Positions 3,286-56,160 of a DNA stretch of 64,000 nucleotides are shown here, piece by piece. The notes under the pieces were generated by a model, which was given only the letters and a program-made list of their open reading frames with translations, was not told the origin of the DNA and did no database searches. Both the position numbers and the translations under genes were made by a program. The DNA comes from a virus. Lineage: Duplodnaviria; Caudoviricetes. The stretch lies in IMG/VR virus record IMGVR_UViG_3300031998_000056, positions 1 through 64,000 of that record; one strand, 5' to 3'. The first letter of the stretch is position 1. Each line of letters starts with the position of its first letter.

Positions 3286-3528
3286 TTATAATTCTTGAAA
3301 TTTTAGTTCTAATTCTTTTGCTTTGTCGTTGTAGTATTTCTCCAAGATGTCGAGCAGTTCTTGGAAAACTTCTTCGGGTATTCGCCCAAAAAGATGGGTA
3401 TCATCAATGCTAATATTGTACACTTCTTTATGCTCTTTTCTTAATCTATTGACAAATCCGATTGCATAATTGAGTCCATCAAGTTCATTGATTATTTTGT
3501 CTGCTTCATGAAATTTATCAAGTTCCAT
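3286..3528 (-). CDS. hypothetical protein
   Basis: Likely start MELDKF at 3528, overlapping the upstream gene end. Confidence 0.65.
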   Translation of the reverse strand: MELDKFHEADKIINELDGLNYAIGFVNRLRKEHKEVYNISIDDTHLFGRIPEEVFQELLDILEKYYNDKAKELELKFQEL

Positions 3529-3958
3529 AACATTTTGTCTTTTCGATTTCTCTTTCACATAAACGTATTCCGATGTCATCGGATGGGAGGGGCACTTCAA
3601 TTCCGTTGCATGAGGCGTAGGCAATGAAGTTGTTGATAGCGTTTGACATCTCTACGGTGTCGAGGTCGGCTGTGGAGCGAAGATATTGGGCTGGGTTGCC
3701 GTTCTTATCCTCTGTTTCGATGAGGAAGATGTCGCGGCAAGCGTATTGCTTAAAATACAATTCTTTAGCTTCAGCCAACGTGCATCCATAACAATGCGCA
3801 AAGTAACTCAAAGCCAAGTGTAAATACCTGTTCTGCGGATTTGACCTCTTGTAATAGTATTTCTTTAGTTCTATTTCGAAGCCTTTCTCCCTTGCTTTGT
3901 TGATGAAGTCGAGGGCTTCAAGGTAGTCTGTGGGGTCGGATGGTTTGTAACGTGCCAT
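3518..3958 (-). CDS. NinB/Orf-like recombination protein
   Basis: KRSNPQNRYLH and RSTADLDTVEMSNAI motifs of the NinB family. Confidence 0.7.
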   Translation of the reverse strand: MARYKPSDPTDYLEALDFINKAREKGFEIELKKYYYKRSNPQNRYLHLALSYFAHCYGCTLAEAKELYFKQYACRDIFLIETEDKNGNPAQYLRSTADLDTVEMSNAINNFIAYASCNGIEVPLPSDDIGIRLCEREIEKTKCYGT

Positions 3959-4309: not shown

Positions 4310-4549
4310 TTATTCCTCCTTATAATCCGCATCAAATAATTCAAATATTTTTTCTTTCAACCGAAAAAGAATGTAGTCGGCATCGCCAAGGGCTTTGTAT
4401 CTATATTCAAGAGCATTAAACTCCATCTCATAGTTGTGCTGCCGCATATAGGCTTGCTCTTGGGCAACTTTAATACGCATTTCATTAAGCTCTCTTTCAG
4501 CATTTTCACATAATTCGTGAACCTTGCTACCAATCTCTTGCTTTGTCAT
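4310..4549 (-). CDS. hypothetical protein
   Basis: 79-aa ORF overlapping the upstream gene. Confidence 0.7.
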   Translation of the reverse strand: MTKQEIGSKVHELCENAERELNEMRIKVAQEQAYMRQHNYEMEFNALEYRYKALGDADYILFRLKEKIFELFDADYKEE

Positions 4550-4776
4550 AGTTCTTCCTCGTAATTTCTACACGCTATATCAGTTACTTTAATCGTTTTA
4601 AGTCCGCTGTTGCTCCGCTTCGATGGTTGTAGCTCACAGCATTGTACGACTTTCGTGGAATACTCGTTGAGAGCGTACCTCTTGCGGTGCGTGCAGGTGC
4701 GACAGCGTTTGAGTTTCTTCTCGTCATAGTCCGCAGCGGCTTTGAATAGTTCGTCAAGTGTAAGTAGGTGGCTCAT
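4546..4776 (-). CDS. small Cys-rich (putative Zn-binding) protein, intact paralog
   Basis: CxxCxH...CC...C pattern; DNA-level paralog at 7314-7592. Confidence 0.8.
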   Translation of the reverse strand: MSHLLTLDELFKAAADYDEKKLKRCRTCTHRKRYALNEYSTKVVQCCELQPSKRSNSGLKTIKVTDIACRNYEEEL

Positions 4777-5098: not shown

Positions 5099-5318
5099 TG
5101 TTGTTAGTATTACGTTCAACAAACTTCTTTCTTAACTCGTCTATCCTTGTCACTATATCTCCGTTAATCATGGATGCAGGCAATACTGGATAGCCGTTAT
5201 AGGTGAGCCAGAGTTCTTTGTTAAGCTCTTTGATTTGGTATGTGTCGCACGATTGCAGTTGTAGGCGTTGCCGTCTGCGCTCGTTCATGCGGTTGTTGTA
5301 GTGTTCGATGATGTTCAT
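5070..5318 (-). CDS. hypothetical protein
   Basis: Likely start MNIIEHY, overlapping the MBL gene stop. Confidence 0.65.
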   Translation of the reverse strand: MNIIEHYNNRMNERRRQRLQLQSCDTYQIKELNKELWLTYNGYPVLPASMINGDIVTRIDELRKKFVERNTNNNETGSIIEG

Positions 5319-6049
5319 ATTGTTTCTTTGTTTAGGTTTACAATAGTTCCTTTCGTTGCCCAAAAAGTAGGAACTGCAAAAGCAGATGCTACGGTGCGGC
5401 AGAAGAGGTCGGGGTCGGAGTTTCGTTCTGACAGATGGCAGAGCGTGATGGTCTTGGCGTTCTCTGCCTTGCAGTCCTGTAGGTATTTAATGCAATACTC
5501 AAGGCTCATGTGTGAGAGCATGATTCTGTCTGCCTGTGCCTTATCTACCTTGCCGTTCCAAACATTCTGCTTTAAGAGTTCGTCAGAGTAGTTCGCCTCG
5601 ATTAAGAAGTGGTCGATGCCTCGGATGGTCTTGCCAATCTTGTAGCTATCGGTACTAAAGAGGAGAGTGCCCATATCCTTATGCCGGATGAGGTAGCCAT
5701 ATATCTCAACATCGTGGTTGTTGTGGAAGGGAACTACGGAGAACGAGCCTATACGTGCAGTCTTTTCGGGTTGTAAAACCTTATAACCTTCGTAGGCGAA
5801 TTGCTTGTTGTCTGCAAGGTCTTGGCATCCGTAGACCTTCACACCGAAACGGGAATATTCTGTGGCGTACTTGGCGTGATCGGCGTGCCTATGGCTCGTC
5901 AAGCATCCTACGACCTTGTTCAGACGGAAGTCGATGGCCCGTTTCACATCAGGCATCTTGATACCAGCCTCAAGAAGTAATATCTCGGAGCCAGTATCAA
6001 GTGCATAAGCGTTCCCAGCGGAGTTGCTGTTGATTACTATGAGTTTCAT
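5315..6049 (-). CDS. MBL-fold metallo-hydrolase (YycJ-like, probable exonuclease partner of RecT)
   Basis: SNSAGN, TSHRHADH (HxHxDH-like), HDV, TDS, EANY and HLSE motifs; adjacent to recT. Confidence 0.88.
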   Translation of the reverse strand: MKLIVINSNSAGNAYALDTGSEILLLEAGIKMPDVKRAIDFRLNKVVGCLTSHRHADHAKYATEYSRFGVKVYGCQDLADNKQFAYEGYKVLQPEKTARIGSFSVVPFHNNHDVEIYGYLIRHKDMGTLLFSTDSYKIGKTIRGIDHFLIEANYSDELLKQNVWNGKVDKAQADRIMLSHMSLEYCIKYLQDCKAENAKTITLCHLSERNSDPDLFCRTVASAFAVPTFWATKGTIVNLNKETI

Positions 6050-6942
6050 TAGAAGTTGGGTTTATCTTCTTCCTGTGTCTCTTCGGGAGTTTCTTCTGCT
6101 ACCTCCTCTGCTTCGGCAAAGGCTTGGTCTGAGGTGATGACGGTGCGAGGCTCCATGTTCTCCTGGTCGCGTTGTTCTTCTGCGGACTGATAATCTTCGT
6201 CCTGAGCAATAGCCTGTTGAATTTCAATAGACATCGGGCCTCTCTTTAAGAGTTGGCGAAGAACGGTTTTCTTGGCCATATTATTAAAATCGCCAAACCA
6301 ACCTATTGCGCCAGCTTTAGGGCCGTTCTCGGCTTGCTCCTGTGCCATCTTATACAAATCTTCCTCAGTAAGCTTGCTGAATTTCAGAGTGGGTGCATAC
6401 ATCTTTGCATAATGACACATCTGTTTAACGTCCATATAGATAATCTGCTTGCGACCAGATGTCAACTTGAAGTAGGCAAAATAACCCACGACCTCGTTAG
6501 ATTCCTTCTGCCCGCTTAGGTCGATAAGACCAGAGAGTTTGTCTTTACTAAGAAGTTCCCCCTTATACACAACGTCAGCGTTGATAATCTCATATTGTCC
6601 GCTTCTGTCTGCAAGGTCTAATAATCCAAGGTAGCCGATAAGGAACTGCGGCTTGGGTACTCCGTGTTCCTTGAAAACTACTACATACGCTCTTGACAAA
6701 GCTTTAGAAAGCGGCAAGTGAAGTGCTGCTGCACGCATAGCTTCGGCTGCAACCAACTTTGGGTCACACTGTTGTAGGTCTGCATTCGATGTATAGAGTT
6801 CCATCATAGAGGTTGCAAACGTTCCAGCATTTTTGCCGAAGAGCTTCTGTAACTGATTCTGATAATACGCTCCGTTCACGATGTTGTTGAAAGCGGAGAT
6901 TTGCTGTTTCTTGTTAACAGCTTGGATTTGATTTTCTGACAT
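6049..6942 (-). CDS. recT: RecT-family single-strand annealing recombinase
   Basis: AALHLPLSKALSRAYVV...QFLIGYLGLLDLADRSGQY...MAKKTVLRQLL. Confidence 0.88.
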   Translation of the reverse strand: MSENQIQAVNKKQQISAFNNIVNGAYYQNQLQKLFGKNAGTFATSMMELYTSNADLQQCDPKLVAAEAMRAAALHLPLSKALSRAYVVVFKEHGVPKPQFLIGYLGLLDLADRSGQYEIINADVVYKGELLSKDKLSGLIDLSGQKESNEVVGYFAYFKLTSGRKQIIYMDVKQMCHYAKMYAPTLKFSKLTEEDLYKMAQEQAENGPKAGAIGWFGDFNNMAKKTVLRQLLKRGPMSIEIQQAIAQDEDYQSAEEQRDQENMEPRTVITSDQAFAEAEEVAEETPEETQEEDKPNF

Positions 6943-6954
6943 AATTATGAATGT

Positions 6955-7317
6955 TTATAAGATAATTTCTTTCTTAATTCCACAGAGGTTTAGCGCGTTC
7001 TGTAACTGATGGACGTAATTAAACTTGAATATCATGTACTCTGCAAGATTTATTGACCACCATATTCCATTTGGCGCGACAAAGATTTCTATAACAAGAT
7101 TTTCATCTTCATCAAAATATGTAGGAGTATGTTTGGGGTCAATGCCGTTCTTTTCCAAGATTTCTGCGGTGAGTGGGATTGGCTGAAGTTTGTCCGCTTT
7201 GTTCCAATATTGCTTGTCGATTTTTACACTCTTGCCTTGTACGGCATACACTTGGTGGCATAGGTCTGAGTTTTCGAATCTAACCCAGTCGCCTAACATA
7301 AGTTCTTCTGCTTTCAT
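6955..7317 (-). CDS. hypothetical protein (YopX-like Bacteroidales phage family)
   Basis: ELMLGDWV...PIPLTAEILEKNG...YVHQLQN. Confidence 0.7.
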   Translation of the reverse strand: MKAEELMLGDWVRFENSDLCHQVYAVQGKSVKIDKQYWNKADKLQPIPLTAEILEKNGIDPKHTPTYFDEDENLVIEIFVAPNGIWWSINLAEYMIFKFNYVHQLQNALNLCGIKKEIIL

Positions 7318-7592
7318 GATTCTTTCTCCTCGTAATTTATACAGGCAACATCAGTTACCTTGATTGTCTTATACCCGCTGTTGCTACGCTTCGATGGCTG
7401 CAGCTCACAGCATTAAAGCTTTGTCTTGCTGGTAACGCTGACGTGCTTCTAATGTACAACTTTCGGCGAATACTCGTTGAGTGCGTACCTCTTGCGGTGT
7501 ATACACTTACGGCAGCGTAAGAGATTCTTCTCGTCGTAGTCTGAAGCGGCTTTGAACAGCTCGTCAAGTGTCATGGTTTCAAATTTGCTCAT
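7314..7592 (-). pseudogene. paralog of 4546-4776 disrupted by a 39-bp insertion
   Basis: Removing 7414-7452 restores a 79-aa ORF (MSKFETMTLDELFKAASDYDEK...VVQCCELQPSKRSN...NYEEKES) whose stop overlaps the next ATG (ATGA). The insert adds in-frame TAG and TAA. Confidence 0.85.
7414..7452 (-). repeat. 39-bp insert, copy of 32345-32383
   Basis: Reverse complement TTAGAAGCACGTCAGCGTTACCAGCAAGACAAAGCTTTA matches 32345-32383 at 38/39. Confidence 0.95.
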
Positions 7593-7598
7593 TTTATT

Positions 7599-9575
7599 TC
7601 ATGTTAAATTTAAATCTGTATCTGCGACTTGTAATCTGAGTTGCTGACCCGCTGTTTCAAGGATGTTGATGGTGCTTTCGGCATTGTCGAGGACGATGGG
7701 CGCTGAAACGTTGTAGAACGTGCATAGGGCGTTGATTATATCCAGCCCAGCGTTCAGCCTTGCAGCTTGGTTCAGCCCTGTGTGATAGGGTATTCCGTCC
7801 ACGTAACACTCACAGAAGGGTTCTTCGAAGGAATCTCCACTATTGTTGACGGTGCGGAAGAGACGCCATTGAACGATGTTGAACTTCTCGTTAATCTTGT
7901 CCTCAAGAATTTCGTTCTGTCGGAACTGATAGTCACGGGCGATGTCCTCCTGTCGTTCCATCTCGGAGAGTTGAGTGATTAAACTCTTCTGCTCCTCGTT
8001 GATACCGGCTATGAGAGCTTGAATCCTATCGTACTGAAACTTGGTGGAGCGTTGAGCGTTAAGGGCTGCGAGGTGTTCCTGCGCCTCCTGTTTCTGCTTT
8101 TCAAGTTCGGATAATTTCTCCTTGTCATCATCGGAGTTAGTGAGTGAGTAGAGTTGCTGTTGGAGGCTTTCGGCTCTCGCTTTCTGCTCTTGGAAGTGAG
8201 TATCCTCGGAAAGAATCTCTTCGTAGGTTTTGACGTGCTGCTTCTCCAATTTAGCTTTCTCTGCGAAGATGACATTGATGTTGTCCTTGAGGATGATGAG
8301 CTGGCGGTTATCTTCAAGTAATTTATCCTCCAAGCGTTTCTTCTCCTCGGCAGCATCTGCTTGCATCTGCTTTATCTTCGCTGCCTGTGCGTTGAGGTCT
8401 TTCTTCTTCGCCTCTACGGAGAGATTGAACTTCTCACGCATTTCATTAACTTTCTCTTGGTATTGCTCTTGTGGGATGGGCTGGCCACAGGTTGGGCAAT
8501 AAGCAGACTGAGGGTCGATGGAGAACTTCTGCGTAGGCCATTGGTCGCGTAAATCCTGTAACAGCTCCTCATAATCTATCGTAGAGCATTGAGAAATCAG
8601 ACGTTCATCGGCTGCGATGGTCTGCTCCATCAGCCTTTGATTGTTAAGTTCTTCGTTGAACTTGGCTGTGTACTTTGCAACGAGGTCTCGGTGTTCGTTC
8701 ATAAGAAACTGCGTATCGCCTTTGGCTTGCTCAATGGTCTGGTCGAGATACTTCTCTACGCTATCGAGTTCTTTCCGTAACTCTTCACGTTCTATGTCTA
8801 CGCCATTACCCTGCTTGAGTGCAAGAATCTGCTTTTCCAGATTTGAGATTTCAGATTGAGAGAGAACAATGTCTTTCTCTATGGCATCCCAATCCAGCTT
8901 CTCTGGCAGGGCTTTGTTCTGCTCCTCAAGACGGACGGGAATTTTGTCGAGTTTCTTCTTTATCTCCTTAATTTGGTAGGATAGGTGCTTGAGGAAATCT
9001 TCTAATGATTGGTCGGGAGCAATCAGAGAGAGTGCGCCAGCGAGGTCATCGTAGGAGAGCTTCGGCATATCCACAAGACTTGTAAGGAAAGCCCTTTGGT
9101 CTTGCCACTTGAGAGAAGGGAAGTAAGTAGGATTTGTGATGGCCTTGAAAACGTTCTCGTTGATAAGCGAAGAAACGTACTTTTCAAAGTCTCCCTTGGT
9201 CAAGCTTTCGCCGTCTACGAAATATTCAACGGTGTTGTTTTTGAATACCGATTCATCAGAACCGCGCTTCTTTACCCACACCTCTTTGATAGAGCGTTTG
9301 AGAGTGGTTTCGATACCATCGTGCGTGATAACCATTTCTACCGAATGGTCGAGGTTAGGGATTACCTTTCCATCTTCGCGCGTCTTGAATAATTCAAGGT
9401 CGCTTTGCCCTTGTGTGTTCTTACCAAACAGACAGAACAGGATGGCATCGGCAATGGTAGTCTTGCCCGAACCATTCCTTCCAGAGATGGTCGTTACTTT
9501 TTCTGAAAAGGAGAACTCCTTATTCTTGAAACACTTGAAATTCTCCAGTCGGAGGTTAGTTATAAGAATGTTCAT
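7599..9575 (-). CDS. SbcC/Rad50-like AAA ATPase with long coiled coil
   Basis: Walker A GRNGSGKTT, central CPTC zinc hook, signature-like GLNQA, Walker B-like IVLDNAES. Confidence 0.88.
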   Translation of the reverse strand: MNILITNLRLENFKCFKNKEFSFSEKVTTISGRNGSGKTTIADAILFCLFGKNTQGQSDLELFKTREDGKVIPNLDHSVEMVITHDGIETTLKRSIKEVWVKKRGSDESVFKNNTVEYFVDGESLTKGDFEKYVSSLINENVFKAITNPTYFPSLKWQDQRAFLTSLVDMPKLSYDDLAGALSLIAPDQSLEDFLKHLSYQIKEIKKKLDKIPVRLEEQNKALPEKLDWDAIEKDIVLSQSEISNLEKQILALKQGNGVDIEREELRKELDSVEKYLDQTIEQAKGDTQFLMNEHRDLVAKYTAKFNEELNNQRLMEQTIAADERLISQCSTIDYEELLQDLRDQWPTQKFSIDPQSAYCPTCGQPIPQEQYQEKVNEMREKFNLSVEAKKKDLNAQAAKIKQMQADAAEEKKRLEDKLLEDNRQLIILKDNINVIFAEKAKLEKQHVKTYEEILSEDTHFQEQKARAESLQQQLYSLTNSDDDKEKLSELEKQKQEAQEHLAALNAQRSTKFQYDRIQALIAGINEEQKSLITQLSEMERQEDIARDYQFRQNEILEDKINEKFNIVQWRLFRTVNNSGDSFEEPFCECYVDGIPYHTGLNQAARLNAGLDIINALCTFYNVSAPIVLDNAESTINILETAGQQLRLQVADTDLNLT

Positions 9576-11631: not shown

Positions 11632-11810
11632 TCTCTAAAACCAGCGGCCTGTCACAGGAGGCTGGTGGATTCCAAATTTAAGATTGTTTTCCTGTCTACT
11701 TTCACAAGCAGATTAAAAAGATAATGAGTTTCCCCACGCTTGGGGCGAATAGTAATTAACAATAACTAAATAACCTAAAACTACAAAACAGCGAATATAT
11801 GATAGAAAAC

Positions 11811-13413: not shown

Positions 13414-14322
13414 ATGATGAATAGGAAAGAACGTCTTAACGAGGCCGTCAATTACCTTAAATTTAAAGGAATTGTCAAGACACATGAAGACATCGCCAAC
13501 AAAATGGGCGCATCAAGACCTAATGTGTCGAGTGCGTTGTCAGGTAAGGAAGGTGTACTTACCGACAACTTTATTTCAAGATTCTGTGCTGCGTTCCCGG
13601 GCATCTCATACTCATGGTTACTCTTGGGTGTAGGAGATATGCTGTCGAACAAGGAGAAATCCGTAGACGACAGAATAAGGGATATATTGAAGATGGAATC
13701 CGTATCGCTCCAAACTTTATCAGATAAGACAGGTAATGACTTTCAAGACCTTCAAAGCTGTCTTGATGACGACATGACACCATCCGATGAGGTTTTAGAG
13801 AAGTTCTCGTCTGCTCTTCACATCAACGAGGATTGGCTAAAGACAGGCGATGGAGAGATTTATGACAGCGACCAGCGCCTTGTAAACTCTGCTGCCTTGA
13901 AGAAGCACATGTCAATGCTCCCAACGAAGCCACGCTTGCCTAAATTCATGTCAGAGCCACACATCGAGCAATACTATGGCGGTGGAAAGAAGAGAATGCT
14001 TTGTCAAGAGAAGCCTGTAATCGCACAATTCTCTGACTACGACTTTTCTTTAATCATTAAGAACAACAGAATGTCGCCTAAATACGATAGAGGGGATGAG
14101 GTGTTTTTCAAGCTGGCTAAATTTCCCGAATGGGGTAATGATTTCCTGTTAGACACAGATGATGGGCCTAAACTGAAACGAATCTACCCAGCCAAAGATA
14201 AAGACGGAGATGACTGCGTTAGATGCGTGTCATATAACAAAGAGGAGTTCCCAGACTTCACAATCAAGGAGAAATACATTCATGGATATTACAGGGTGGT
14301 CGGAGTTTTGAGAATATTATAA
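13414..14322 (+). CDS. CI-like repressor: two HTH domains plus S24-like C-terminal domain
   Basis: Two HTH units each ending WLxxGxGxM/I; C-terminal MSPKYDRGD...LKRI. Confidence 0.85.
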   Translation: MMNRKERLNEAVNYLKFKGIVKTHEDIANKMGASRPNVSSALSGKEGVLTDNFISRFCAAFPGISYSWLLLGVGDMLSNKEKSVDDRIRDILKMESVSLQTLSDKTGNDFQDLQSCLDDDMTPSDEVLEKFSSALHINEDWLKTGDGEIYDSDQRLVNSAALKKHMSMLPTKPRLPKFMSEPHIEQYYGGGKKRMLCQEKPVIAQFSDYDFSLIIKNNRMSPKYDRGDEVFFKLAKFPEWGNDFLLDTDDGPKLKRIYPAKDKDGDDCVRCVSYNKEEFPDFTIKEKYIHGYYRVVGVLRIL

Positions 14323-15387: not shown

Positions 15388-16536
15388 ATGATACCGAAAG
15401 TTAGCTTCATTTTCGACAGGAAAGGAAAAGCAAGTAAAAATAGAGCGTCCGTAATCGAGTTATTGATATACTACGGAGGCCAGCGAAAGTACATATCCAC
15501 AGGGGTTTCCGTACTCCCAAGTGAATGGAAGAACGGCTCTGTGGTGAGTAGGAAAGATTGGCGAGAGTTGAACGAGCAATTGCAAATCATGAAGCAGAAA
15601 TGCTCGGACATCGTTTCTAACATGATGCGTGAGGGTAGCCTAAACATCAAGGCCATCCCCAGCTTGCTCAATGGGAGCATGGTACAGGAGAAAACATTCC
15701 TGGACTATGCAAAAGAGTTGGCTGAATTAAGATACAAGACGATTAGGAAAGGCACAAAGGCGCACTACAAAACCTTCTTCACGTTCATGGATGAGTGGAA
15801 AGGTATCGTGATGTTCGCTGATTGTACGGAGATGAACGTGCGTAGGTTCGATGACGAACTGACGGAAAGAGGTCTGATGGTGTCTACAAGGTGGAACTAC
15901 CACAAGATTTTGAAGCAATTCATACTCCAAGCGATAGATGATGGGTTGGTCAAACAGAATCCGTATTCCAGACTGAACATAAAGAGAGGGTCAGAAGATG
16001 GTTTAAAGCGGTTTCTGACGCCTTCCGAGTTCAAGATGGTAGAGAAGTCCAAGATGCCATCAGAATGTCTTCAGAAGGTCAGAGATTTATTTGTATTTCA
16101 AACGTACACCTTGTTAAGTTATTCCGACTTGGCTCTGTTTGATTACAAACGCTGTGAGAAGATGGGGAAGGAGATAGTCTACAAGGCTAAAAGGGTAAAG
16201 ACAGGACAGGAGTTTGTCGTAGTCCTATTAAAGCCAGCTTTGGAAATCTTAAAACGATACCAATACCGGCTACCAATCATTTCTAATGTTAAGTATAACT
16301 TGTATCTGAAAGCTGTGGCTCAACACGCAAAGGTAGACAAGCCATTGACCACACACTTCGCCAGACATACGGGAGCCACGCTGCTTCTAAATGAGGGAAA
16401 GCTACCCATGCACATAGTCCAGCACATACTTGGTCACGCATCTATTAGGGAAACCGAAAAGACCTACGCAAAAGTGATGGACGAAACGATAGTCGGTGCA
16501 ATGGCAGGGTACAAAACAAAAAAGGGGAAGCATTAA
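15388..16536 (+). CDS. int: tyrosine integrase (Bacteroidota type, with Arm-DNA-binding and SAM-like domains)
   Basis: RDLFVFQTYT..SYSD, HFARHT, LGHASI, Tyr in KTYAKV. Confidence 0.93.
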   Translation: MIPKVSFIFDRKGKASKNRASVIELLIYYGGQRKYISTGVSVLPSEWKNGSVVSRKDWRELNEQLQIMKQKCSDIVSNMMREGSLNIKAIPSLLNGSMVQEKTFLDYAKELAELRYKTIRKGTKAHYKTFFTFMDEWKGIVMFADCTEMNVRRFDDELTERGLMVSTRWNYHKILKQFILQAIDDGLVKQNPYSRLNIKRGSEDGLKRFLTPSEFKMVEKSKMPSECLQKVRDLFVFQTYTLLSYSDLALFDYKRCEKMGKEIVYKAKRVKTGQEFVVVLLKPALEILKRYQYRLPIISNVKYNLYLKAVAQHAKVDKPLTTHFARHTGATLLLNEGKLPMHIVQHILGHASIRETEKTYAKVMDETIVGAMAGYKTKKGKH

Positions 16537-23763: not shown

Positions 23764-23820
23764 GTCTATTCAGATTATATTCGTAAATTTGCAGCCTGTA
23801 AAAACCTAAAACTAAATGAC

Positions 23821-27406: not shown

Positions 27407-27432
27407 ACTTTAACCTTTGAACTTTGAACTTT

Positions 27433-31764: not shown

Positions 31765-31972
31765 TGCCTTTGAACTTTGAACTTTGAACATTGAACTTTA
31801 GGTGTTGCAAATATAAATCATTTCCTTGTTCTGTGCAACGTTTTTGTTGCGCGTAGCAAATGATAACAAATGTTTGGTGGGTGTGTTAAGAAATTATAAC
31901 ATTTATAACTCAAAACAAGGAAAGACGAATGTCTTTATCTCCTATTTTTGTGCGCAGAAATATTGTAAACTT

Positions 31973-33136
31973 ATGGCAAATTTATTCGCAAAGAAACCCC
32001 TTGACTTTGGCGTGAAGCCATTGGAACAGCCCGTTCCTGTGTACAGACCACAAGAACCAGGGAGTATTGCTGCGGCATATAAAGCAGCAGAGGAGAATGG
32101 TACGTGGAAGCCTACGGTTCAGCCACAGACTGTAAAGGCCATGCCAGCCGTCAATCCAAACAGCGACACAAGCGGTATGGATGCTCTTTTGTCTATGTAC
32201 ACCAGCCCCGAGGATGAGCTGAAGATGAAACGTGCAAGCATGAACAACCAACGGATATTGGCTGTTGCAGATGCTTTACGGCACATCGGGAACATCTATA
32301 ACACCACGAACTACGCTCCAGCCCAGCAGTTCAACAACCCTGTGTTAGAGGCACGTCAGCGTTACCAGCAAGACAAAGCTTTACGTGATGCGGCCAATGC
32401 AAGATACATGACCTATCAACAGGCAAAGGCAGCGCAAGACCAGAAACAGAGACAATGGGAGGCCACGTTTAACTATAACTTGGCGAAGGACGCAGCAGAC
32501 TATGAGTTGAAGAAACAGCAAGCAGACGCTAATGTAGCCCGTCAGAATGCACTTGCAGAGCTTGACAAGGCAAGACAAGAGGGTGTGATTTCCGAGAACG
32601 AGTACAAGAGGATACGCAACGAATGGTATCCCAAACAACAGGAGGCCGCGCTTGAGAAAACAAAGGCGCAAACGCAGTCTGCAAAGACAACCGCATGGAA
32701 CAGCACCCGATGGACGAATGAGCGCATCAGGAAGTCACAAGAAGGTGGTGGCGGTGGAGGCGGAAGCAAGAGTTTCGGAGACCCGTTGGAAACTCCCAAT
32801 GGAAAGATACGGCCTATCAGCAGAAACTACCCAGACCAAATCCGACAGATGTATGATTATGCGAAAGAGAACAACATGATACAATCTGAATCTGGCAATG
32901 ATGCTTTGTCGAGAATCCAAGCGAGATTTCGTAACACCAAAGAACCGACTGACGCACAGAAACGACAGGTAGTTATGGGCTTGCTTCGTAACAATCCAGC
33001 AATGGCCAATTACGCCCATGAGATGTTTGGCTGGGAATATGTGAACGGTGGTACTACAAGCGGAAGAGGCACTATGCCCGGCGTTCAAGTTAGTGGGAAT
33101 GATAATAGCAGAGGTACAATGCCCGGTGTTCAATAA
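31973..33136 (+). CDS. probable internal virion / ejection protein
   Basis: Start MANLF after a TATTTTTG box; Ala/Gln coiled coil; C-terminal RGTMPGVQ twice; directly upstream of the giant gene. Confidence 0.7.
   Translation: MANLFAKKPLDFGVKPLEQPVPVYRPQEPGSIAAAYKAAEENGTWKPTVQPQTVKAMPAVNPNSDTSGMDALLSMYTSPEDELKMKRASMNNQRILAVADALRHIGNIYNTTNYAPAQQFNNPVLEARQRYQQDKALRDAANARYMTYQQAKAAQDQKQRQWEATFNYNLAKDAADYELKKQQADANVARQNALAELDKARQEGVISENEYKRIRNEWYPKQQEAALEKTKAQTQSAKTTAWNSTRWTNERIRKSQEGGGGGGGSKSFGDPLETPNGKIRPISRNYPDQIRQMYDYAKENNMIQSESGNDALSRIQARFRNTKEPTDAQKRQVVMGLLRNNPAMANYAHEMFGWEYVNGGTTSGRGTMPGVQVSGNDNSRGTMPGVQ
32345..32383 (+). repeat. donor of the 39-bp insert at 7414-7452
   Basis: Encodes LEARQRYQQDKAL; 38/39 identity. 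Confidence 0.95.
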
Positions 33137-33141
33137 ATAAA

Positions 33142-36100
33142 TTGATATTTATGAAAAACGAAAGCAGAGAGTGGTTGTACAAAACCCTTAGTGGGAACGG
33201 ATATAACGTAGGTAAAGACTATGCTCAGTTCGATTCTTTGATGACGAACAACGCCGATAGCCGCAAGTGGGTGTATGAAACCATGCGCAGCAACGGATAT
33301 AATGTTGGTAAGGACTATAACGAGTTTGAAGGTCTTGTCAATCCCGTACAAGCTACAGAGCAACCAACGGGTGTTGTAAATCGCTTCAAGGATAAGGTAA
33401 GCGCCATTAAGGACAAAGCCGAACAGGTAGCCAACCAGCCTACGGTACATGTAGGCGGTGACGGGATGACCTTTACTGAATCCCAGCTTGATTCCATAGA
33501 TAATGGTGCGAAGCCTGTTTATGTAGGAAACCAACCCGTTCAGCAACCTAAACAGGCCGTTCAGCAGACTGAACCACGTAGAACACTCAGAACTCCACAA
33601 GAGTTGAAAGAGGAACTGCGTCAGATTAACCCTGATGTGGCAGACAAGGCAGAGGCATTGGAGCGCACAGAACGTGAGACACGCGCCTTTGCTCCTACAC
33701 ATCTTGTAGAGGATTACAACCGCACAGCCGAAGAAACAAACAAGGAACTGACGGAAGCATTTAAGCGTGGCGCATTCAGACGGCCTACACTTGATGACGA
33801 GTTGGAGGCAGCGTACAGAGACAAAGCACGTTTAGAGGAAGAGATTTCTGCAAATGCTGGCCCTGGTGGAGCATCAAAGGGGTGGGCTACAAAGATGTCA
33901 CAGGCAAGTAACGGCTCACCTATTGATGTAAACACAGCAGACGAGGACAGACGCGCAGCACTCAGACAGGTTGAAAACAGGATACAAACCCTTGAGGATG
34001 AGAAGAACAATGCAGGTTTCTGGAGAGGATTGAGCGGCGATCTGTTCAAACCACAGAATTGGAGCTTCGGAATCGTAGACTTGGCCGATGCCACAAGGTT
34101 GCGTAATGCTGTTGGTGCTGGAGACAAAGTGACAGACACCCAGAAGGAGTTGTTGCGTAACACGCTTTTGGCTAATGATGCAGAATCAAGATACGGTCGT
34201 AATCGCAACGCTTGGTACAGAGCAGGTAAGATGGGCGCACTCAGCATTCAGATGATGCCCGACTTTATGCTTGGTATGGGTGGCATGAAATCCGCAGCAA
34301 GAACGGGTATAAACCTTGCAACGAAAGCTGGCGTTAAGGCTCTTGGCGAGAAAGCCATGCAGAAGGGGCTTATCAAGTACACCACGAAAGCTCTTGGCTT
34401 GGCTGGCGGTTCACTTGCTGGCGGTGCGAGAATGGTCAATACCATACAGCTTCCGCGTTTAGGCGCAGAGGCCATGAAGAACTATAACGGCAACCTCGTT
34501 CAAGACGAGAACGGAAAGTATAAGTTCGAAGATGGAGAAGAAAACTTCTTGGATGCCGTATTAAAGGCCGAACAGACACTTATCCCCGAAGCCGCAAGCG
34601 AGGTTGGTGGTGAGTTTACGCCCGGCGTAGGAAGAATCCTTGGCGGTTTAGGCATGAAGAAGATAGCTAAGGGCCTTTCTGCGGTGCAAGGTACAAAATT
34701 GTACAAGAACGTAAGCAAGGCCTTGGCAAAGACAGGATTCAACGGCGCACCAAGTGAAGCATTTGAAGAATATGCCAATGATGTGTATTCAATGATGCTT
34801 GGCGATAAGAGTGGTATCTTTGGTGAGAACGGACAAGGCGGATGGGGAGAAGGCCAAAAGCATTTGGATATTTGGCTTGGCACAGGAACGCTTGGTGCTT
34901 TGCTTCACGCCCCCACGATAGCAGGTACTGGCTTTGGTGCTGCTCAATATTATAGATATAAGCACAAGACGAACACAGCCGACAAGAATGCGAAAGAGCT
35001 TCTTGGTGCGATGACGTGGGATAATATCAAGAAAAGCATTGATAATTCCACAAACGACAACATTTCCGATGTTGTAACAGCAATCTTTAAAGCAGGCGGT
35101 CTTGACAGAGAAGGAAAGAAAGCTGTCATCGACTACGCAGGTAACTTGCAGAAACAACGTGGTTTCAGCCTTGGACTGACCGCTGCAAAGAATGAAGAGG
35201 GAAGAGGCAAGGAAGGTGCTACTGCCGATGTACTCGACAACAGTTATGGTGCAGGTTATGAAGCAGAAGGAAGGGAGCAGAAGGAAGGTATAAAAGCCAC
35301 CTTTGACGCTGCCACGCAGAACCTTGATGCTATGGGCGAGGATATTGCCTCGATGGTGAAGGATGAAGAGAATCCTCCAATGGCTGTACTCAGTTATATG
35401 ATGGGCCACAGGGATTCCTATAGCGATGAGCAGATTTCAGCCGCAGCCGACTACTATCAGGCAAAGATGCAGCTTCAAGGTATGGAGCAAGCAGAAGCAG
35501 ACAATGCCGAGATAGAAGGTGAGCAGACACCGAAACCATTATATACTACCGTAGAGCAGAGCGATGGCAAGTTCAACGTGAGTTCGTTTGACAAGAACGG
35601 CAACCTATTAGGACAGCAGAGCTTCGACACAGAGGACGAAGCCAATGCCTATCGTGGAGAGGTGAAGATGCAGAAAGAGCATCAAGACCTACAGGACTAT
35701 ATTGGTAGGATGGGGGCGCAAGGTGCTAATACCATCGCTCAGTTTGAACAGGAGAACGGCTGGGAACCAGGTACTATACAAAAGCTGACCGAAGCAGACC
35801 CGATGCAGATGAGTGACGAGGAGTTGCAGATGGCCGACCAAGCAAGAGCATTCCTCCAAGAACAGGCTTATCCTCCTACGGAAGTTCACATCGGACATAG
35901 CGAGGAGCAGGGTGCAGAGGCAGCAGACGATGCAGACATCGACACCGACACGCCAAATGCAGAGGTGGTTGCGTCTGTTGTCGTTCCTTATGTGGAGTCA
36001 AGAGACAAACTTTCCGACCTATTCAAGCGTAATGAAGAATTAGCCGAAGAGGTGCAGCTTTATGAGCAGATGGGCAAGAGCGAACAGGAGATTGTGTCTA

Positions 36101-39100
36101 TGCTCGACACCTTTAAGCCAGAAGATGTGCAGACCGTCATCGACTACTATAACGCCCAAGCCCGTCTCGATGGTTTCATGAACCGCAGTAAAGAGAAGAT
36201 TGAGGAGCGCGTGAGGCTTGAGAGAGGACGCAGAACGTTCAAGGGTGTGATTAACGGACAGCCAGACGTGCGTGATTTGGTGGAGATTACAGACGGGGAG
36301 AATACCTATACGCTTGTAAACGGGAACATCCGCACCAATGAGCAAGGACAGGTGACGGGTTCTGACGGTGTTATTATCGCACTCGACCAGAACGGGAACT
36401 TTGTGAGCCTTGGCGGAAACAGCACATTAAGCGTACTGCCAAGTGAGACTACCCTTGACAATTGGGAGGAAGCGTATCGTAACCAAGTACAGGAGAACGC
36501 AACCGCATCTATTGACCCGAATGGGGTATTACAAGAGACAACCGACAACGGACAACCGACAACGGAAGAGCCGATAGAGAATGGAGAGCAAGCCGGTGGT
36601 GAGGCAGGTCAAACGACGACCGGAGCAAACGAGCCATCGGCGCCTCCAGCTCCACAGGAGAATCAGCCTATTACCATTGAGAGCGTAACAGGCGAGGATG
36701 GTGTGAAGCGTTATGAGCAGGGAGTAGATGTTGATACGGCCATAAAGGACATGGAGGCTGACGGCTTGGACGTGAACGAGTGGTCAGACCTTGCCATCAA
36801 CGAGGCACAGGAAGAGCTGAACAAGATGAAAGCTCCCAAGACCCGTGCGGAGTATGTGAAGAACGCCCAGCGTAAGAATGAGCTGCAAGCCACTATAGAT
36901 TATTATAATAATGTTAAGAACCGCTATACTGAGTTGCATCCCGTCTATGCCGATGCAGCACCGTTTGTAGAACGACTTAACAAGGCTACAAGCAAGAAGA
37001 ACGCAGACGACATACTGAACGAAGCTTTACAGGCTGGCGTGAATCCTTCCGAGATACAGGCTGCACACACGCAGAAGGTTTCTGATATTATCACGAAGGA
37101 AGAGGAAGCACGACAGAGAGCAGAGGAAATTACTGATACTGACAAGAAGAATATTGCTCAATACGGAGGAACGCCCGAGGGCAGGGCTTCGCTACTCGAC
37201 AAGAAACGTGGCAGCGCAGAGAAACGCCGCAAGCTTGCAAAGGAGATTTACGGAGAGTACTTTGATGACGACTTTGAGGCCATCAGAGACCTCCGAGAAC
37301 TTATCTCCTCATGGTTAGGAAAGGGTAGGGCATTAGACCCCGACACCTTCGGACAGGAGCTTGGCTGGGATATGGGCGTAGGCAAGGATGCCGCGAAAGT
37401 ATCCACTATGTTCACGAAACGTAGGGAGAACGGTGGTGACGGCATGACGTTCAATGACTTCGTACACATGGTGTGGGAAGCCAGCGGAGGCAGGTTTGAC
37501 ACCGATGAGATACGGAACGAGCTTTTAGACATGTTCCAAGGCGCACAGGACAAGACCGACCTCACGGAGTATCAGTTGCAGTCGAGAATTGCCGAGGCCG
37601 AGATGAGGATGCAAGGCGAGCTGGAGAGAGCAGAACAGGCAGCACAAGAGGGAGAGACCGAGCAAGCGCCAATTGGTGACGGTATGTTGCCGTTTGCACC
37701 GATGGAAGGCGAAGAAGCTCCTGTCGCACCGTCCGAACAGTTGAAGCCTACAGACTTGAGGGATAATGTAAAACCCGAATCAGCAAAGATTGGCGAAAGC
37801 AAGAAGGAACTACAAGAAAAAATAAAAGGTTGGCTGACAGACGAAAACGTAGAATGGGCCGAGGGGAAAGACCTTAACGAAGTCATTGAGCGTTTCGGAA
37901 ACGAACCAGAACCCATTGCTGTCATGCCAGAGATTGTGAGGAAGAATATTCCTTCACTCGACACAGATTACCTTTACTGCGGAAAGGCTTACTTTATTGA
38001 CCACCATGCGAATCATCATCCCGAACTCGACATTGATGAGTACGACAACATTCAAGAAATACTTGATTCTTATGATGACATAAAAGACCTTTCGGATGGA
38101 GGAAATCTCAGAATAGCCTTTGTTAAAAAATTAGACAAGGGATATGCCGTAGTAGCTGAATTGTCAAAGGAGAATGATAAGATTGTTCTTCACAAGACGT
38201 TCTTCTATCGAGACGCCGCAGGTAAGCGCATACCTTATAAGAACAAGCCGAGTATTTTAGAAAAGTGGTCTGTGGACGGTAGTACCACAATCAGTCCTGT
38301 TGAAAGCCAACAGCCGGCAGACACCGAGAATATTTCTGCTCTTGACCAATCTTCTGAGGGCAAAGATACAAATGAATCGGAAGAAAAGCAAGAAAAAGTC
38401 GAAAAATCTTCAAGTAAACAAGATTATTTAACATCTCACCCCCTTACTGAGGAGCAGATCATGGCCGATGCAGAATCCACAGAGGATGAAAAGCTTGCGG
38501 CTGTGGACTATCTGAAAGGTGAGGACGACAGCGCCATCTCGCAGTTCTACTATGATGAGATTTACAGAAGGGCTACCCAGACAGAAGAACAGAAGGACAA
38601 AGAAGTTGAGGATAAATCCGAGCGAACAGGAAAGACGTTTAACCTCGATGATGTAGAAGCCCTAAAGAGCGCTCCAAGCGGAGTAAGAGGTGCGATAAAG
38701 GACTATGCTGTTTCGGCATACAATAGTGCATACCTCAAAGTTCCATCGTTCCAATTCGGCATTCCCGAAGAACAGCAGGAGAACATGACGTATGAGAAGT
38801 TCTTGGACGAGTTCAAGGAACAGGCTGGTGTGCTTGCAAGAGGATGCGAGAAATATCTCCCAGCAGTCTATGAATACATAGAAAGCAAGCTTGACAAACG
38901 GGGATTGAATCATCAGAAATATGCGCAGCCTATTGAAACGGAAAATCCGACAGAGGCCATTGAACAGGCTGCAAAGAGCTTCCGCCAACAGCAGAAGGCA
39001 CAGGATAGAGCCGACATTGATGCCGCATTGAAGGAGTTCAACGACTTCTTGGATGGTGCGAAAGGAAACACGCTTCTTGGCAAGCTGATGTATAAAGGTC

Positions 39101-42100
39101 TTGAAGGCAACGACAAGGCAAAACTTGACCTTACCGTGCTGAATGCCGCACAACGTGCGTTCATGAAAGACCTGCTGAGACTGGCTTCAAAGGTGGGTTA
39201 CGCTTATATCAAGAGTGGCGTTCACAACGTACAGGCATGGAGCAAGCAGATGTCGGAGAGCATTGGCAAGAAGCTAAAGGAAGTGCTTGGCTGGGATGAG
39301 GCTACCATTGACGACTTTATCGGAGAGGTTTGGGAACAGAAATACACGGTCGATGGGGAGCGAATGAAGCTCCGCGAACACGCTGAAAAGTTAAATAAAA
39401 ATAAGGAGGCCGACCAGACTGTTAACGTTAACAAACAGAAGAACAATGGTACGGAAAATGTTGTATCTTTGCAGCAAGAAGCCGAGGCAGAGCCTCAGCC
39501 TGCGGAGAAGGGTTTGCAGGTAGACTTTGATGAGATAGAGTCTTTGAAGAAAGCTCCGTTCTCTGTGCGTGAGACCATTAAGGATAATGCAATTTGGGCT
39601 TATCAGGATGCTGTAATAAGCAATTTGGGAAGCATCTTCGGTTTTACACACGAGGAAAGAGAGGAGAAGAAGTACAACAGCTTCGTTGAGAACTTCAATA
39701 GAAGAGCTGGCGACTTGTTATCCAAAGGCTGCGAGCCATATCTTCGCGATGTGTACGACTATATCTCCAAGAAGATTGGAGAGCAATTAGAGCGGAGGAA
39801 GGCTGAGAAGGAGGCTGAGGTTGCGACTGAGTCGCAACAGACGGGAAAGCTGGAGGGTGACTCAGCGGAGTTCGCCAAGGAACAAAAGAAGAAGAGTGAG
39901 CTTGGTGTTGCGATTTTTTCTGCATTGAGAGCCGCCGTATTCGATGGCGATGTTCAGTTAAAGACGATGCAGAACGTTAAGGCACTCGCAAAGGAATACG
40001 GGCTTGAGAACCTGAGTTCCACCGACCTTCAAGAGATGGTTGAGGCAGAAGTGGTACAACTCGCCCGTAGGATTGCAGAACATAAGAAGTGGACGCCAGA
40101 ACAGAAGTATGAGAACATTGTACGCCTGTATCAGACGCAGCCGAGCTTGAACGCGAGAGACAACGACAGGATTAACCTCCAGCAATACTCAACGCCAGCT
40201 CCTATGGCTTATCTCATGGGAAGGTTTGTAGACCCGAATGATGAGGCACAGAGCGGACTTGAGCCGAGCGCTGGAAACGGTATGCTTACGATAGGGTTGC
40301 CGAAGGACATCATGCACGTCAACGATATTGACGAGATGCGTCTCTCCAACCTTGCCAAGCAGGGCTTCAAGGAGGTGACAAGTCAAGACGGAACGCTGCC
40401 GTTTGGAGATAAGAAGTACGATGTAATCGTGACCAATCCTCCGTTTGGCAGCACAGAGCCGAAGGTGTACGACCTATACTCTATCAGTGGATTGGAGCAT
40501 CAGATGGCTATCAACGCCTTGGATGCGATGAAGGACGATGGCAGGGCCGCGATTATCATTGGAGGCAACACCGAGTACACCAATACGGGTGTCATCAAGG
40601 GAAAGGACAGGTCGTTCTTGAACTACCTCTATTCGCACTACAATGTGGTAGATGTGATTAACATGGATGGCAAGAGCCTGTATTCAAGACAGGGAACGGG
40701 CTTCCCTGTAAGGATGATTCTTATCAACGGAAGAAAGGAGTTCGAACCTAACACCTTCGCCCCCGTACAGAGCAAGGCAAGAGCCGAGCAGATAAAGACA
40801 TACGATGAATTATATAAACGAGTAAACGATGACATACTATCTGACAACAACAAGCCCGCTGGTGTTCACGACACAGAAAGCGGAGAGGGTGGAAGAGTGG
40901 ATGATACCAGACATGCTGGAGCTTCTGCTCAAACGGGAGTACGAAATGTACGAACCGAAGGAGGCGAAGGCCAACCTTCAGTACGTGCTGAACTCAGACC
41001 AAGTGTTCAGGGAGGTGATAACGCCACCGAGCGAACTGACGCCGCAGAGCAGCAAGAAGTGGATAGGGGACTTCCTGATGTCGGAGGCAGGTCGGGAGCT
41101 AATGAGCCAAGTGGGTCAGCCCCTGCACCAGCAAACGGAGAAGGAGGAAACGTTTCTGAACGAGGAAACGACACTGAGCGACCTGCTGCCGAGTCTGGCG
41201 AACCCAGCGGAGGCGGACGTAGCCCAAGGGTGGACGACACACACCGTGTATTAGGAGCGGAGAAAGTTCCCTATAGACCACAAAGTAACAACCCATATTC
41301 TTTGCAGTCGCAGATGCCTGCAGAACAGGCTGACGTTGTAAAGAAAGCACTTGAAGATTTGGGCGATGTTGACGAGTTCTTGGTTAGAGAACTTGGTTAT
41401 TCTTCCGTTGAAGATTTGTATCATGGCTCACAATCTCCCGAAAAACACGGAGGCTTGGCAGCAGAGCAGATTGATTCTGTCGCAATGGCCATCCACCAAA
41501 TGAACCAAGGAAATGCCTTTATCATTGGCGACCAAACGGGTATCGGTAAAGGCAGACAGGCAGCAGCACTCATACGCTACGGAGTTAAAAAGGGAGGATT
41601 CCCCGTATTTATCACGGTGAAGAAAGCCCTGTTCTCTGATATGTACCGCGACCTTTGCGACATCGGAAGCCCGAAGCTGAAGCCGTTCATTTGGAGTGCA
41701 GATGATAGCGAGCATTCGGGTAATGTTACCGACAAGGACGGTAAGGTTATTTATGAGATGCCGAGCAAGAGCGAACAGAAGCGTGTCGTAGACTACATCA
41801 ATAAATATGGCAAGCTTCCAAAAGAATACGACTACGTTCTCACCACCTATGACGCATTCAAGAGTGGTACGATGGACTATGAGAACGGGCAGAAGAAAGC
41901 ACGTAAGTTCGCAAAAGGCAAAACGGCTGGCCCCGTTCATATAAACGGACAGGCCAAACGCGATGCTCTGGAGAGGTTGGCAGAGAACAGCTACGTGATT
42001 ATGGACGAGAGCCATAACGCAGGTGGCGAGGGAAGTAACATCAGCAATTACTTGCAGTATATCACTACAAGGGCAAAGGGCATCACATTCCTGTCGGCTA

Positions 42101-45100
42101 CGTTTGCTAAGCGTCCGGGCAACATGCCTATCTATTCGCTAAAGACCGCTATCGCTAAAGCTGGAGTTGAGGTTGCCGACCTTATTGATGCCGTTAAGCG
42201 AGGCGGTGCTACCTTCCAAGAGATTATGTCGAAAGCTCTCACCGAGGCAGGTCAGATGATCCGCCGCGAGAGAGACATGACGGGTGTTACTATCGACTGG
42301 CGAGGCATAGAAGATGAGCAGGTCATTGAGAAACAGCGCCAGCAGTACGATGAGATAATCGGTCTTTTTAACGATATTATAGATTTCCAGCGTACTTACG
42401 TAGACCCCATCATCGACAAATTGAATGATGATGCGGCAGATGCGCAGGGGGCAGTAGACCACACGCCCGGTACGCGCGACATGGGCATCAACAACACGCC
42501 GTTTGCTTCACGTACCTATAATATGGTACAACAGGTACTCCTTTCACTGAAAGCCGAGGAAGCCGCCAAGCGTGCTATTGAACATTTGAAAGAAGAACGC
42601 AAGGCTGTTATTACCGTTGCCAACACCAACGAGGGAGCAGCCGATGAGGTTTCTGCGGCCAATGGTGAGTCGATGGAGATGCCTGACTTGAGCGTGAACT
42701 TGAAGAAAGGATTGCGCGGAACGCTTCGTATCACAAGAAAAGACGGGTACGGAGATTCTAAAAACAGCGAGATACCTTTCGGTAGTCTCAGCCCAGAAGG
42801 ACAAGCAAGGTATCAAGAGATAATGGATGCCATTGACAATGCTTCTACGGGATTAAGCCTCAGTCCTATTGATGTCATCAAGAACGAATTGAAGAAAGCT
42901 GGCTATAAGGTTGGAGAGCTGACAGGCCGAAAAGCCGAGTTCGTCTATAACGAGGACGGAAGCGTGAAGCGAGTAAACCGCAAGGACACCGACAAGAAGA
43001 AGGTCGCAGCAGACTTTAATAATGGTAAGCTTGATGCTCTTATATTGAATAAGAGTGCAGGTACGGGTATATCGCTACACGCCTCTACCACATTCAAAGA
43101 CCAGCACCAGCGCATCATGATTGTCGCACAGGCACAGGGTGACGTGAACGATGAGGTGCAGATTCGTGGTCGTATCGACAGAACGGGGCAAGTGCAACGT
43201 GGTGCTTATGAATACGTTGTCTCTCAGATTCCGTCAGAGCAAAGGCTGTTGATGATGCTGAAAGCAAAATTGCGTTCGCTGGATGCCAACACCACAAGCT
43301 CGCAGAAGTCGAAGTTCAATGAGATGCAAGTACAGGACATCATCAATAAGTATGGTGACCAGATAGTCATTCAGTATCTCGCAGAGCATGTAGACCTTGC
43401 CGAGAAGATGCAGAATCCTCTCAAATGGGATGGAGATTGGCAGACAAATACGCCAGAGCAGCTTGTGAACACCGCATCAAAAGCAGATACCGATGGCGGA
43501 ACGGCCAGCAAGGTTCTTGGACGAATGGCGCTCTTGAAAGTGAAGGAACAGGAGCAGATGCTCGATGACATATCTTCACTTTACCAAGCCGAGATTGACC
43601 GTCTGAACGATATGGGCGAGAACGACTTGGAGATTACCGAGATGCCGTTGAAAGCCAAGACACTCAGCAAACAAGTATGGGAGCAGGGTATTGAACCAGG
43701 AGGAAAGAATCCGTTTGCCGACAACAGTTATGTTGAGAAGGTGAACATGGACGTTCTCAGAAAGCCCATGAAGGGTAGTGAGGTCAAGGCCGCACAAGAA
43801 AGATTACTTGGCGGAAAGACGTGGGACGAATACAAGCAGTCTGTACTTGACAAGCTTGACAAGTGGGCTGAGGACAAGAAATCCGACACCACAGAGACCA
43901 TCACTGCAAGGGCCGAGAAGAAAGCCGAGGCAGAGAAGGAGAAGTATATTAAGGGTGCGAAGAAAGCACAGGAGAAGAACGGCATGACAGATGCCGAGAT
44001 AGAGAAGAACGGCCAGCTTCAATATGACACCTTCTACAAACAGGAGATGGAGAAGCTGAACAACGCTCTTGCAGCTATCGAGAAACAGAAGGATGTGTTC
44101 GTTGATGCCTTGGAGACCTTCACAACTGACGGAGTATATGCTTTGCCGAGCAACATCTACGACCTTGGAAGGATGACCTTTGAGCCGGGCTTCGGTAAGC
44201 TGATAGATATGAAGATTGCCGATAACTTCTCCACGTCTGCCAGCACCATCAGCTTCGCAACCCTTGACGGACGAAGGAAGATTACCATCCCCATCAGTGG
44301 CATGGTGAAGCAGCAGAACAACGAGAAGCGAGGGATATTCCCCATCATCAATACTCTGACGGCACAGACGAGGCATGGTATGTTCGGACAGAATATGTCG
44401 AACACCTTGAAAGTGTTAGGACAGAACCTTGACAATTGGGATAAGCTCACATCCACCGCAGCCCGTAAGGATGGATATATCATCACAGGAAACCTTCTGA
44501 AAGCCCTTGTATCCACGCGAGAGCAGCATGTAGGAGGAAAGCTGATTTCCTATACTGCCGACACAGGCGAGGTGCGCCAAGGCATTCTGATGCCCGACAA
44601 CTTCGAACCTGCCGGACTGACAAGCAAGACACCCATCTCTGCAAAGAAAGACGAGTTGAGGTATTCAAGAGACAAGGTGGAGAGTGCCGATGGTGATGTG
44701 AGCATCCGCGTGACGAATGATTACGATTGGCGTGAACACGCTTATAACACTTTAGAGCTGACAGTACCCAAGTCAGTGAAGAAGGGTGCGAAGTATTTCA
44801 ACGACCAAACCTTGTTAGACCTTATGCAAGGTCAGTTCGAAGGCTCAAGCAGAATGAAGGCCGAGTTCAAACGTGAGAACCTCGATGCCGTGATGAAGCG
44901 TTTGGATGAGCTGGGCGTGACCGTACAGGAGCAGAATAACAACGACACCGACAGAAGGTTTGATGAGGATATAGAAGATGCTTACACAGCAGAAGAGCAG
45001 TCCATCATTGACGAAGCCAAGAAGAACGGCACGTACATGAAGGCTCCAAACGGGAAGAAGAGTAATCTTACACCGAAGCAGTGGGTCAGAGTCCGTACCA

Positions 45101-51147: not shown

Positions 51148-51264
51148 CACCTCCTACCAAAAGAACCACCCCACCATCTCGGCGGGGTGATTTCTTGTCA
51201 ATAACTAAATAACCTAAAACTATGAAATTGTTATAACCGTAAAATGTATCAGCTTGAAGAATTA

Positions 51265-56124: not shown

Positions 56125-56160
56125 TGTTTACTTTGAACTTTTAACTTTGAACTTGAAACT

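Follow-up and report, generated by a model that had tools for sequence, protein, structure and literature searches.

A 39-bp copy of a late gene within a duplicated early gene of a temperate Prevotella-type phage

What could place a short piece of one phage gene, cleanly and without repeats, inside another gene of the same genome? The question is raised by IMG/VR record IMGVR_UViG_3300031998_000056 (Caudoviricetes), which is 73,918 bp long, classed as linear and 100% complete, and of which positions 1 to 64,000 were analysed here (the window, to which all coordinates refer). Here, we propose that the piece probably stems from a one-off illegitimate insertion of the phage's own DNA, which left a filler or templated scar and truncated a redundant paralogue. 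We draw a distinction between this reading and the CRISPR-related, RecT-mediated and decoy mechanisms that were also entertained in the preliminary description of the locus.

The phage is temperate, as it encodes a tyrosine integrase (15388-16536) and a CI-like repressor (13414-14322). The interrupted gene belongs to a leftward early operon, for which the minus strand is the sense strand, and is accompanied there by recombination genes, the operon including a NinB/Orf-like protein (3518-3958), an MBL-fold hydrolase (5315-6049), RecT (6049-6942) and an SbcC/SMC-like ATPase (7599-9575). A related RecT (60% identity) occurs in a single cellular record, a contig assigned to a rumen Prevotella MAG, and Prevotella is the probable host. 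A perfect 24-nt AT-rich direct repeat, CAATAACTAAATAACCTAAAACTA, is found at the end of the early operon (11760-11783) and just past a giant late ORF (51199-51222; 29 nt at 93%), with a weaker copy at 23800, and may be a regulatory or terminator-associated motif.

The insert and the gene it interrupts

The bases at 7414-7452 (plus strand) are the reverse complement of 32345-32383, 24.9 kb away, with an identity of 38/39. The lone mismatch is at window position 7447 (T in the insert, C in the donor); on the sense strand the insert reads GAA and the late gene GAG, both of which encode Glu. No second match arose in 100 dinucleotide-preserving shuffles, and the pair is both the top-ranking inverted repeat in the 64-kb window and, in a self-BLAST of the full 73,918-bp record, the strongest self-match after the pair of paralogues to which the interrupted gene belongs. 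The insert is inverted relative to the genome and reads, on the minus strand, in the donor's sense orientation on the early-operon sense strand.

The acceptor is the second of two copies of a small Cys-rich early gene, both on the minus strand. Copy 1 (4546..4776) is intact and encodes 76 aa, whereas copy 2 (7318..7592) is broken, as seen from its alignment and translation; the two have 84% DNA identity on either side of the insert. Aligned with copy 1 and with five homologues from viral contigs, copy 2 has exactly 39 bases extra, with no other gain or loss, and the corresponding uninterrupted junction in copy 1 is at 4642|4643. The insertion falls within the Gln codon of the peptide KVVQCCELQ, producing the arrangement CA|T TAG ... 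CTT TA|A, and this peptide is unbroken in copy 1, in the five viral-contig homologues and in five database homologues. Since the paralogue and these ten intact homologues lack it, the insert is foreign to the early gene.

Two stop codons, a TAG (7449-7451) and a TAA, are brought into the acceptor frame by the insert, and of the 76 aa of the Cys-rich product only 47 remain. The N-terminal 47-aa ORF (7449-7592, minus strand) ends at the insert-borne stop, while the 96-nt C-terminal remnant (7318-7413, minus strand) has kept both an open frame and the conserved motif CCELQPSKRSNSGYKTIKVTDVAC. The truncation parts the CxxC half of the protein from its CC...C half. Truncated copy 2 is presumably dispensable, since copy 1 is intact. 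The event appears to be fairly recent, given the 38/39 identity to the donor and a C-terminal remnant that has lost neither its frame nor its motif.

The borders of the insert are equally well delimited. Junction ambiguity is 1 nt, the sequence shared at the junctions does not exceed 1 nt, and there is no useful microhomology close to either of them. The insert is flanked neither by a duplication nor by a repeat, the number of target bases lost is 0, and the flanks are ordinary coding sequence in common with the paralogue. On these points the preliminary description was accurate: the alignment and the shuffles uphold a 39-bp insert with a 38/39 donor match and a synonymous GAG/GAA wobble, 13 whole donor codons did land out of phase and make TAG and TAA, and junction microhomology of at most 1 bp without target duplication is what we observe.

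In its pre-insertion form, copy 2 has an 8-bp palindrome, TTGTACAA, right at the break point (7453-7460, minus strand), where only GTAC or GTGC is present in copy 1 and in the homologues; the palindrome may reflect chance or may mark a nuclease site. An explanation by restriction-site logic was considered and rejected, as no motif is common to the TTGTACAA site and to the donor border at A|CGT.

The donor gene and the source allele

The donor segment (32345..32383, plus strand) consists of 13 whole codons, LEARQRYQQDKAL, of a late ORF. The gene encodes 387 aa from its ATG (31973..33136, plus strand), or 436 aa if the upstream TTG at 31826 is used, and the piece lies in phase with it (32345-31826 = 519 = 173x3). 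It belongs to a family with more than 250 members in phage contigs; when 120 homologues are aligned, the piece is found within the best-conserved protein block, and a 74.7-kb relative (G001) has NEEYARYQQGKAL at the equivalent position. As the piece is native to the donor by both of these observations, and foreign to the acceptor, the comparison of homologues shows the late gene to have been the source and the early gene the recipient, as had been claimed.

The same description had called the donor an ejection-protein gene, a label that is only a guess from gene position: the donor ORF has no family match in Pfam or PHROG, and merely adjoins a polyvalent protein of 6001 aa encoded just downstream (33142-51147, plus strand). 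The domains of this giant protein include AAA_34/Helicase_C_4 (a helicase of the Strawberry-notch/Sno type), ART-PolyVal, LPD3, and LPD38, with no Pfam match in its first 2500 aa. A tandem ACTTTGAAC-type motif is present at 27407-27431, 31774-31798, and 56130-56154; one of these sites is in the divergent intergenic region immediately upstream of the donor gene, and the motif may serve as a late promoter or bind a regulator.

Where did the inserted allele come from? A mosaic relative (L047, from Logan DRR452107) has a 353-nt block of the donor gene that is 92% identical to that of the window (32127-32479 against L047:311-663) and encodes the same residue at 114 of 115 positions. In the remaining protein the identity is about 50% or lower, and over the 150 nt spanning the donor-gene start (31833-31981) the DNA is 95% identical to the relative. 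This pattern suggests recombination between related phages inside the donor gene. The nearest other homologue of the donor gene has an identity of only 52%. The relative's version of the 39-mer has GAG, differs at its 3' end, and matches the insert at about 34/39. Two contigs of the same strain from JGI 3300028914 (L028 and L029) match the window with 100% identity along 6,059 nt, and GAG is also the donor codon in that assembly. The preliminary description had raised a co-infecting relative as a possible source, and had proposed a search for a GAA allele among phage relatives. No GAA donor allele was found in the window, in the same-strain JGI contig or in the mosaic relative from DRR452107, all of which have GAG, and the phage's own allele is the better match (38/39 as against about 34/39), so that the insert would have come from its own phage lineage or from a very close variant. 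The single mismatch could possibly be a later substitution, a variant donor allele, or the result of low-fidelity copying; a later substitution, if it occurred in the donor, would be synonymous and tolerated. In JGI 3300028914 the strain is assembled in pieces, and L028 ends at window position 7100, within a gene for 120 aa and 314 nt short of the insert, an end that could reflect low coverage or strain variation in this region.

The record was assembled from a metagenome, and all of the assemblies that carry the insert may stem from the same or sister samples, both of which leave room for a library or amplification chimera, or a mis-assembly, absent from the phage population. We consider this very improbable. 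The exact 47-aa product requires the CA|T TAG junction, and it is recorded in three further assemblies, two separate SRA runs among them: on a 74,365-bp contig, on which a homology search also places a copy of the 120-aa neighbour protein and which is most likely the ENA ERZ27257204 contig with the donor protein, and on Logan contigs from SRR9008936 (5274 bp) and SRR9008937 (1097 bp). A chimera formed within one sample should match at 39/39, whereas the insert matches at 38/39 and the donor has GAG in both assemblies seen, and the junctions have no k-mer in common that could mislead a graph assembler. The ends of the Logan contigs bear on the same point. With the graph setting, which we take to be k=31, a contig approaching from the acceptor side must break at insert position 36 if position 6 differs from the donor, the exact repeat then running over positions 7-39. 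The 1097-bp contig extends 32 nt beyond the stop codon, as far as insert position 36, and the gene layout of the 5274-bp contig, ending 31-33 nt past the stop, fits the same break. Judging from these coordinates, the contig end is what a real 33-nt exact repeat would produce, and it speaks against an assembly artefact. The 3' insert junction is supported by two long contigs only.

The origin of the insert

In light of these observations, how might the insert have arisen? The reading that we prefer is a single, fairly recent illegitimate (non-homologous) insertion, in which a break would arise in the second copy of the small Cys-rich early gene, 39 bp of a late gene from the same phage would be copied or captured at that break, and the piece would be joined bluntly in inverted genomic orientation, leaving a neutral or near-neutral scar that truncates a redundant paralogue. 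The general idea of a short fragment captured or copied at a break, already present in the preliminary description, thus stands as the best reading. As to the route, the blunt and conservative junctions incline us, tentatively and at somewhat less than even chances, towards a clean break, its ends unresected, into which a short duplex piece of phage DNA was ligated. Less likely, at perhaps one chance in four, is that a polymerase engaged in replication or repair switched templates twice with little homology, and what remains falls to other routes. As the phage is temperate, the event could date from the prophage state or from lytic replication.

None of the well-studied pathways finds its full set of hallmarks in the insert. 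Of 151 sampled genomes of Prevotella, itself only the probable host genus, none was found to carry Ku (PF02735), and neither an ATP-dependent ligase nor Mu Gam was found in the phage genome, which speaks against Ku/LigD end-joining as a source of filler. Capture of an oligonucleotide by RecT, one of the candidates put forward earlier, requires homology arms, and these are absent at the junctions. Template-switch models of the MMBIR type expect microhomology of 2-5 nt, and integration by Cas1-Cas2 duplicates its target. Typical of alternative end-joining of the E. coli type are resection and a heavy use of microhomology (PMC11297215), signs of which are absent at the insert.

Two further explanations have to be weighed against a one-off scar. 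One is that Cas proteins were involved, either through ectopic integration of a prespacer-sized fragment by Cas1-Cas2, or through repair after Cas cleavage that trapped a fragment made by Cas. The range of prespacer sizes takes in 39 bp, the inserted DNA is of phage origin, and Cas1, present in 63 of the 151 sampled Prevotella genomes in which Ku was sought and not found, is common in the genus. We give a Cas-related origin only a slim chance all the same, as it has no positive support. The target is not duplicated, nor is any repeat; the insertion site is inside a Gln codon (KVVQ|CCELQ), is neither a leader-repeat junction nor repeat-like, and is flanked by coding sequence that the paralogue also has. 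A single donor is known, too few for a PAM consensus. In 401 Prevotella genomes nothing resembling a spacer against the donor region was found, the only match within the 39-mer being one of 19 nt, at chance level, and the core 22-mer is not matched exactly in any of 185,579 GTDB species-representative genomes. The exact 33-mer is likewise absent from the viral contig collection and the exact 25-mer from the metagenome contig collection, in scans from which records very close to the window may have been left out, as they may from the 22-mer scan, and a blastn search of the phage collection for distant matches found none. The CRISPR link that had been suggested is therefore one of size alone, and the proposed check for a Prevotella spacer match came back negative.

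The other explanation is a selected functional element, acting either as a protospacer decoy in the early transcript or, from the opposite strand, as an antisense regulator, 39 nt long, that acts on the late gene. Its orientation in the early operon, which is sense, and its length, a multiple of three, are compatible with such a role, which we regard as extremely unlikely: the insert occurs once, in one phage lineage, destroys a conserved gene, matches no host spacer and has nothing similar in relatives, and no promoter motif of the Bacteroidetes type (TAnnTTTG) was seen by eye on the plus strand at 7300-7413. The earlier suggestion that the early transcript might sponge a crRNA met with no supporting evidence, and a second sense copy would in our judgement add a target for RNA-guided defence and not hide one. 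Counting against both explanations, self-BLAST found no other precise, spacer-sized self-copy in the 73.9-kb genome and no similar insert in four related phage records (G001, G003, G004, and G005; 236 kb), the search for self-inserts of the 30-45-bp type that had been recommended; the other short matches, in this genome and in the four records, are only intergenic motifs or longer, diverged paralogous stretches. A lone event, with no host spacer match and no inserts in relatives, is what the preliminary description itself had named as refuting it, and by that standard its more exotic readings fail.

A broader conjecture, and in our view a very doubtful one, is that phage genomes occasionally take up prespacer-sized pieces of phage DNA by a capture that uses neither homology nor repeats. 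Zero-stagger or half-site integration by Cas1-Cas2, or some other ligation of short fragments in Ku-less Bacteroidota, may be candidates for such a process. If it were true, scars of this sort would preserve, as a natural record, the fragments freed by defence or repair nucleases in the course of infection.

Comparison with known systems

Several kinds of element that can place foreign bases in a gene were considered and rejected. A transposable element or MITE does not fit a sequence with two copies only, one of them a conserved coding segment, and no target-site duplication. A diversity-generating retroelement is opposed by the lack of an RVT_1 domain in the phage genome, and by the differences, which over these 39 nt amount to a single A/G change among 14 adenines. 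Recoding of the stop codons is opposed by the lack of tRNAs in the phage, and by a late ORF of 6001 aa that stays open when read with code 11. With the inserts of translational bypass (the gap of T4 gene 60, and mitochondrial byp) there is a likeness, namely a multiple-of-three insert in a coding sequence with a stop right after the last sense codon. In contrast to the byp elements, the insert is a plain copy of another gene and not a member of an element family, and programmed bypass was rejected, as the take-off codon CAT is followed by TAG, a TAA precedes the resumption at TGC, and there is no in-frame CAT or CAC landing codon.

The likeness to spacer integration by Cas1-Cas2 consists in the 39-bp size and the phage-DNA source. 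It ends there: repeat, leader and target duplication are all missing, the DNA that received the piece is that of the phage, there is no sign of a PAM, and no spacer matches. Off-target integration by Cas1-Cas2 (Nivala et al. 2018) is cited in passages of two further papers (PMC7054753; PMC6698737).

Closer are the short template-switch mutations attributed to FoSTeS/MMBIR, which also yield inverted templated insertions, and whose low-fidelity copying the one mismatch would fit. Each such switch uses 2-5 nt of microhomology, usually with a template nearby, whereas here the microhomology is 0-1 nt and the template 24.9 kb away.

The closest known kind is the filler, or captured, DNA found at repaired double-strand breaks. 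Filler DNA is known from plant and yeast NHEJ, and in E. coli non-homologous DNA is reportedly captured by alternative end-joining (Chayot et al. 2010, cited in PMC11297215). Like filler DNA, the insert is a short piece of the same genome, present as a single copy, with a non-homologous junction, no target-site duplication, and no terminal repeats; in the broad sense of a filler or templated insertion, its bases are a copy from the same genome that was joined without homology. It differs from filler DNA in that no target was lost, the junctions have no microhomology, and the donor is 25 kb off, and from the filler of NHEJ in that the 151 sampled genomes of the likely host genus show no Ku.

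Thus, the finding is real but ordinary in kind, and matters little by itself. Its value is as an example: a temperate Prevotella-type phage with a clean and well-delimited illegitimate insertion of its own DNA, which inactivates a duplicated accessory gene. It is also a data point, as its blunt junctions, its intact target and the absence of Ku from the sampled genomes of the likely host genus make it a poor fit to Ku-dependent NHEJ, alternative end-joining, MMBIR, and Cas1-Cas2 integration alike.
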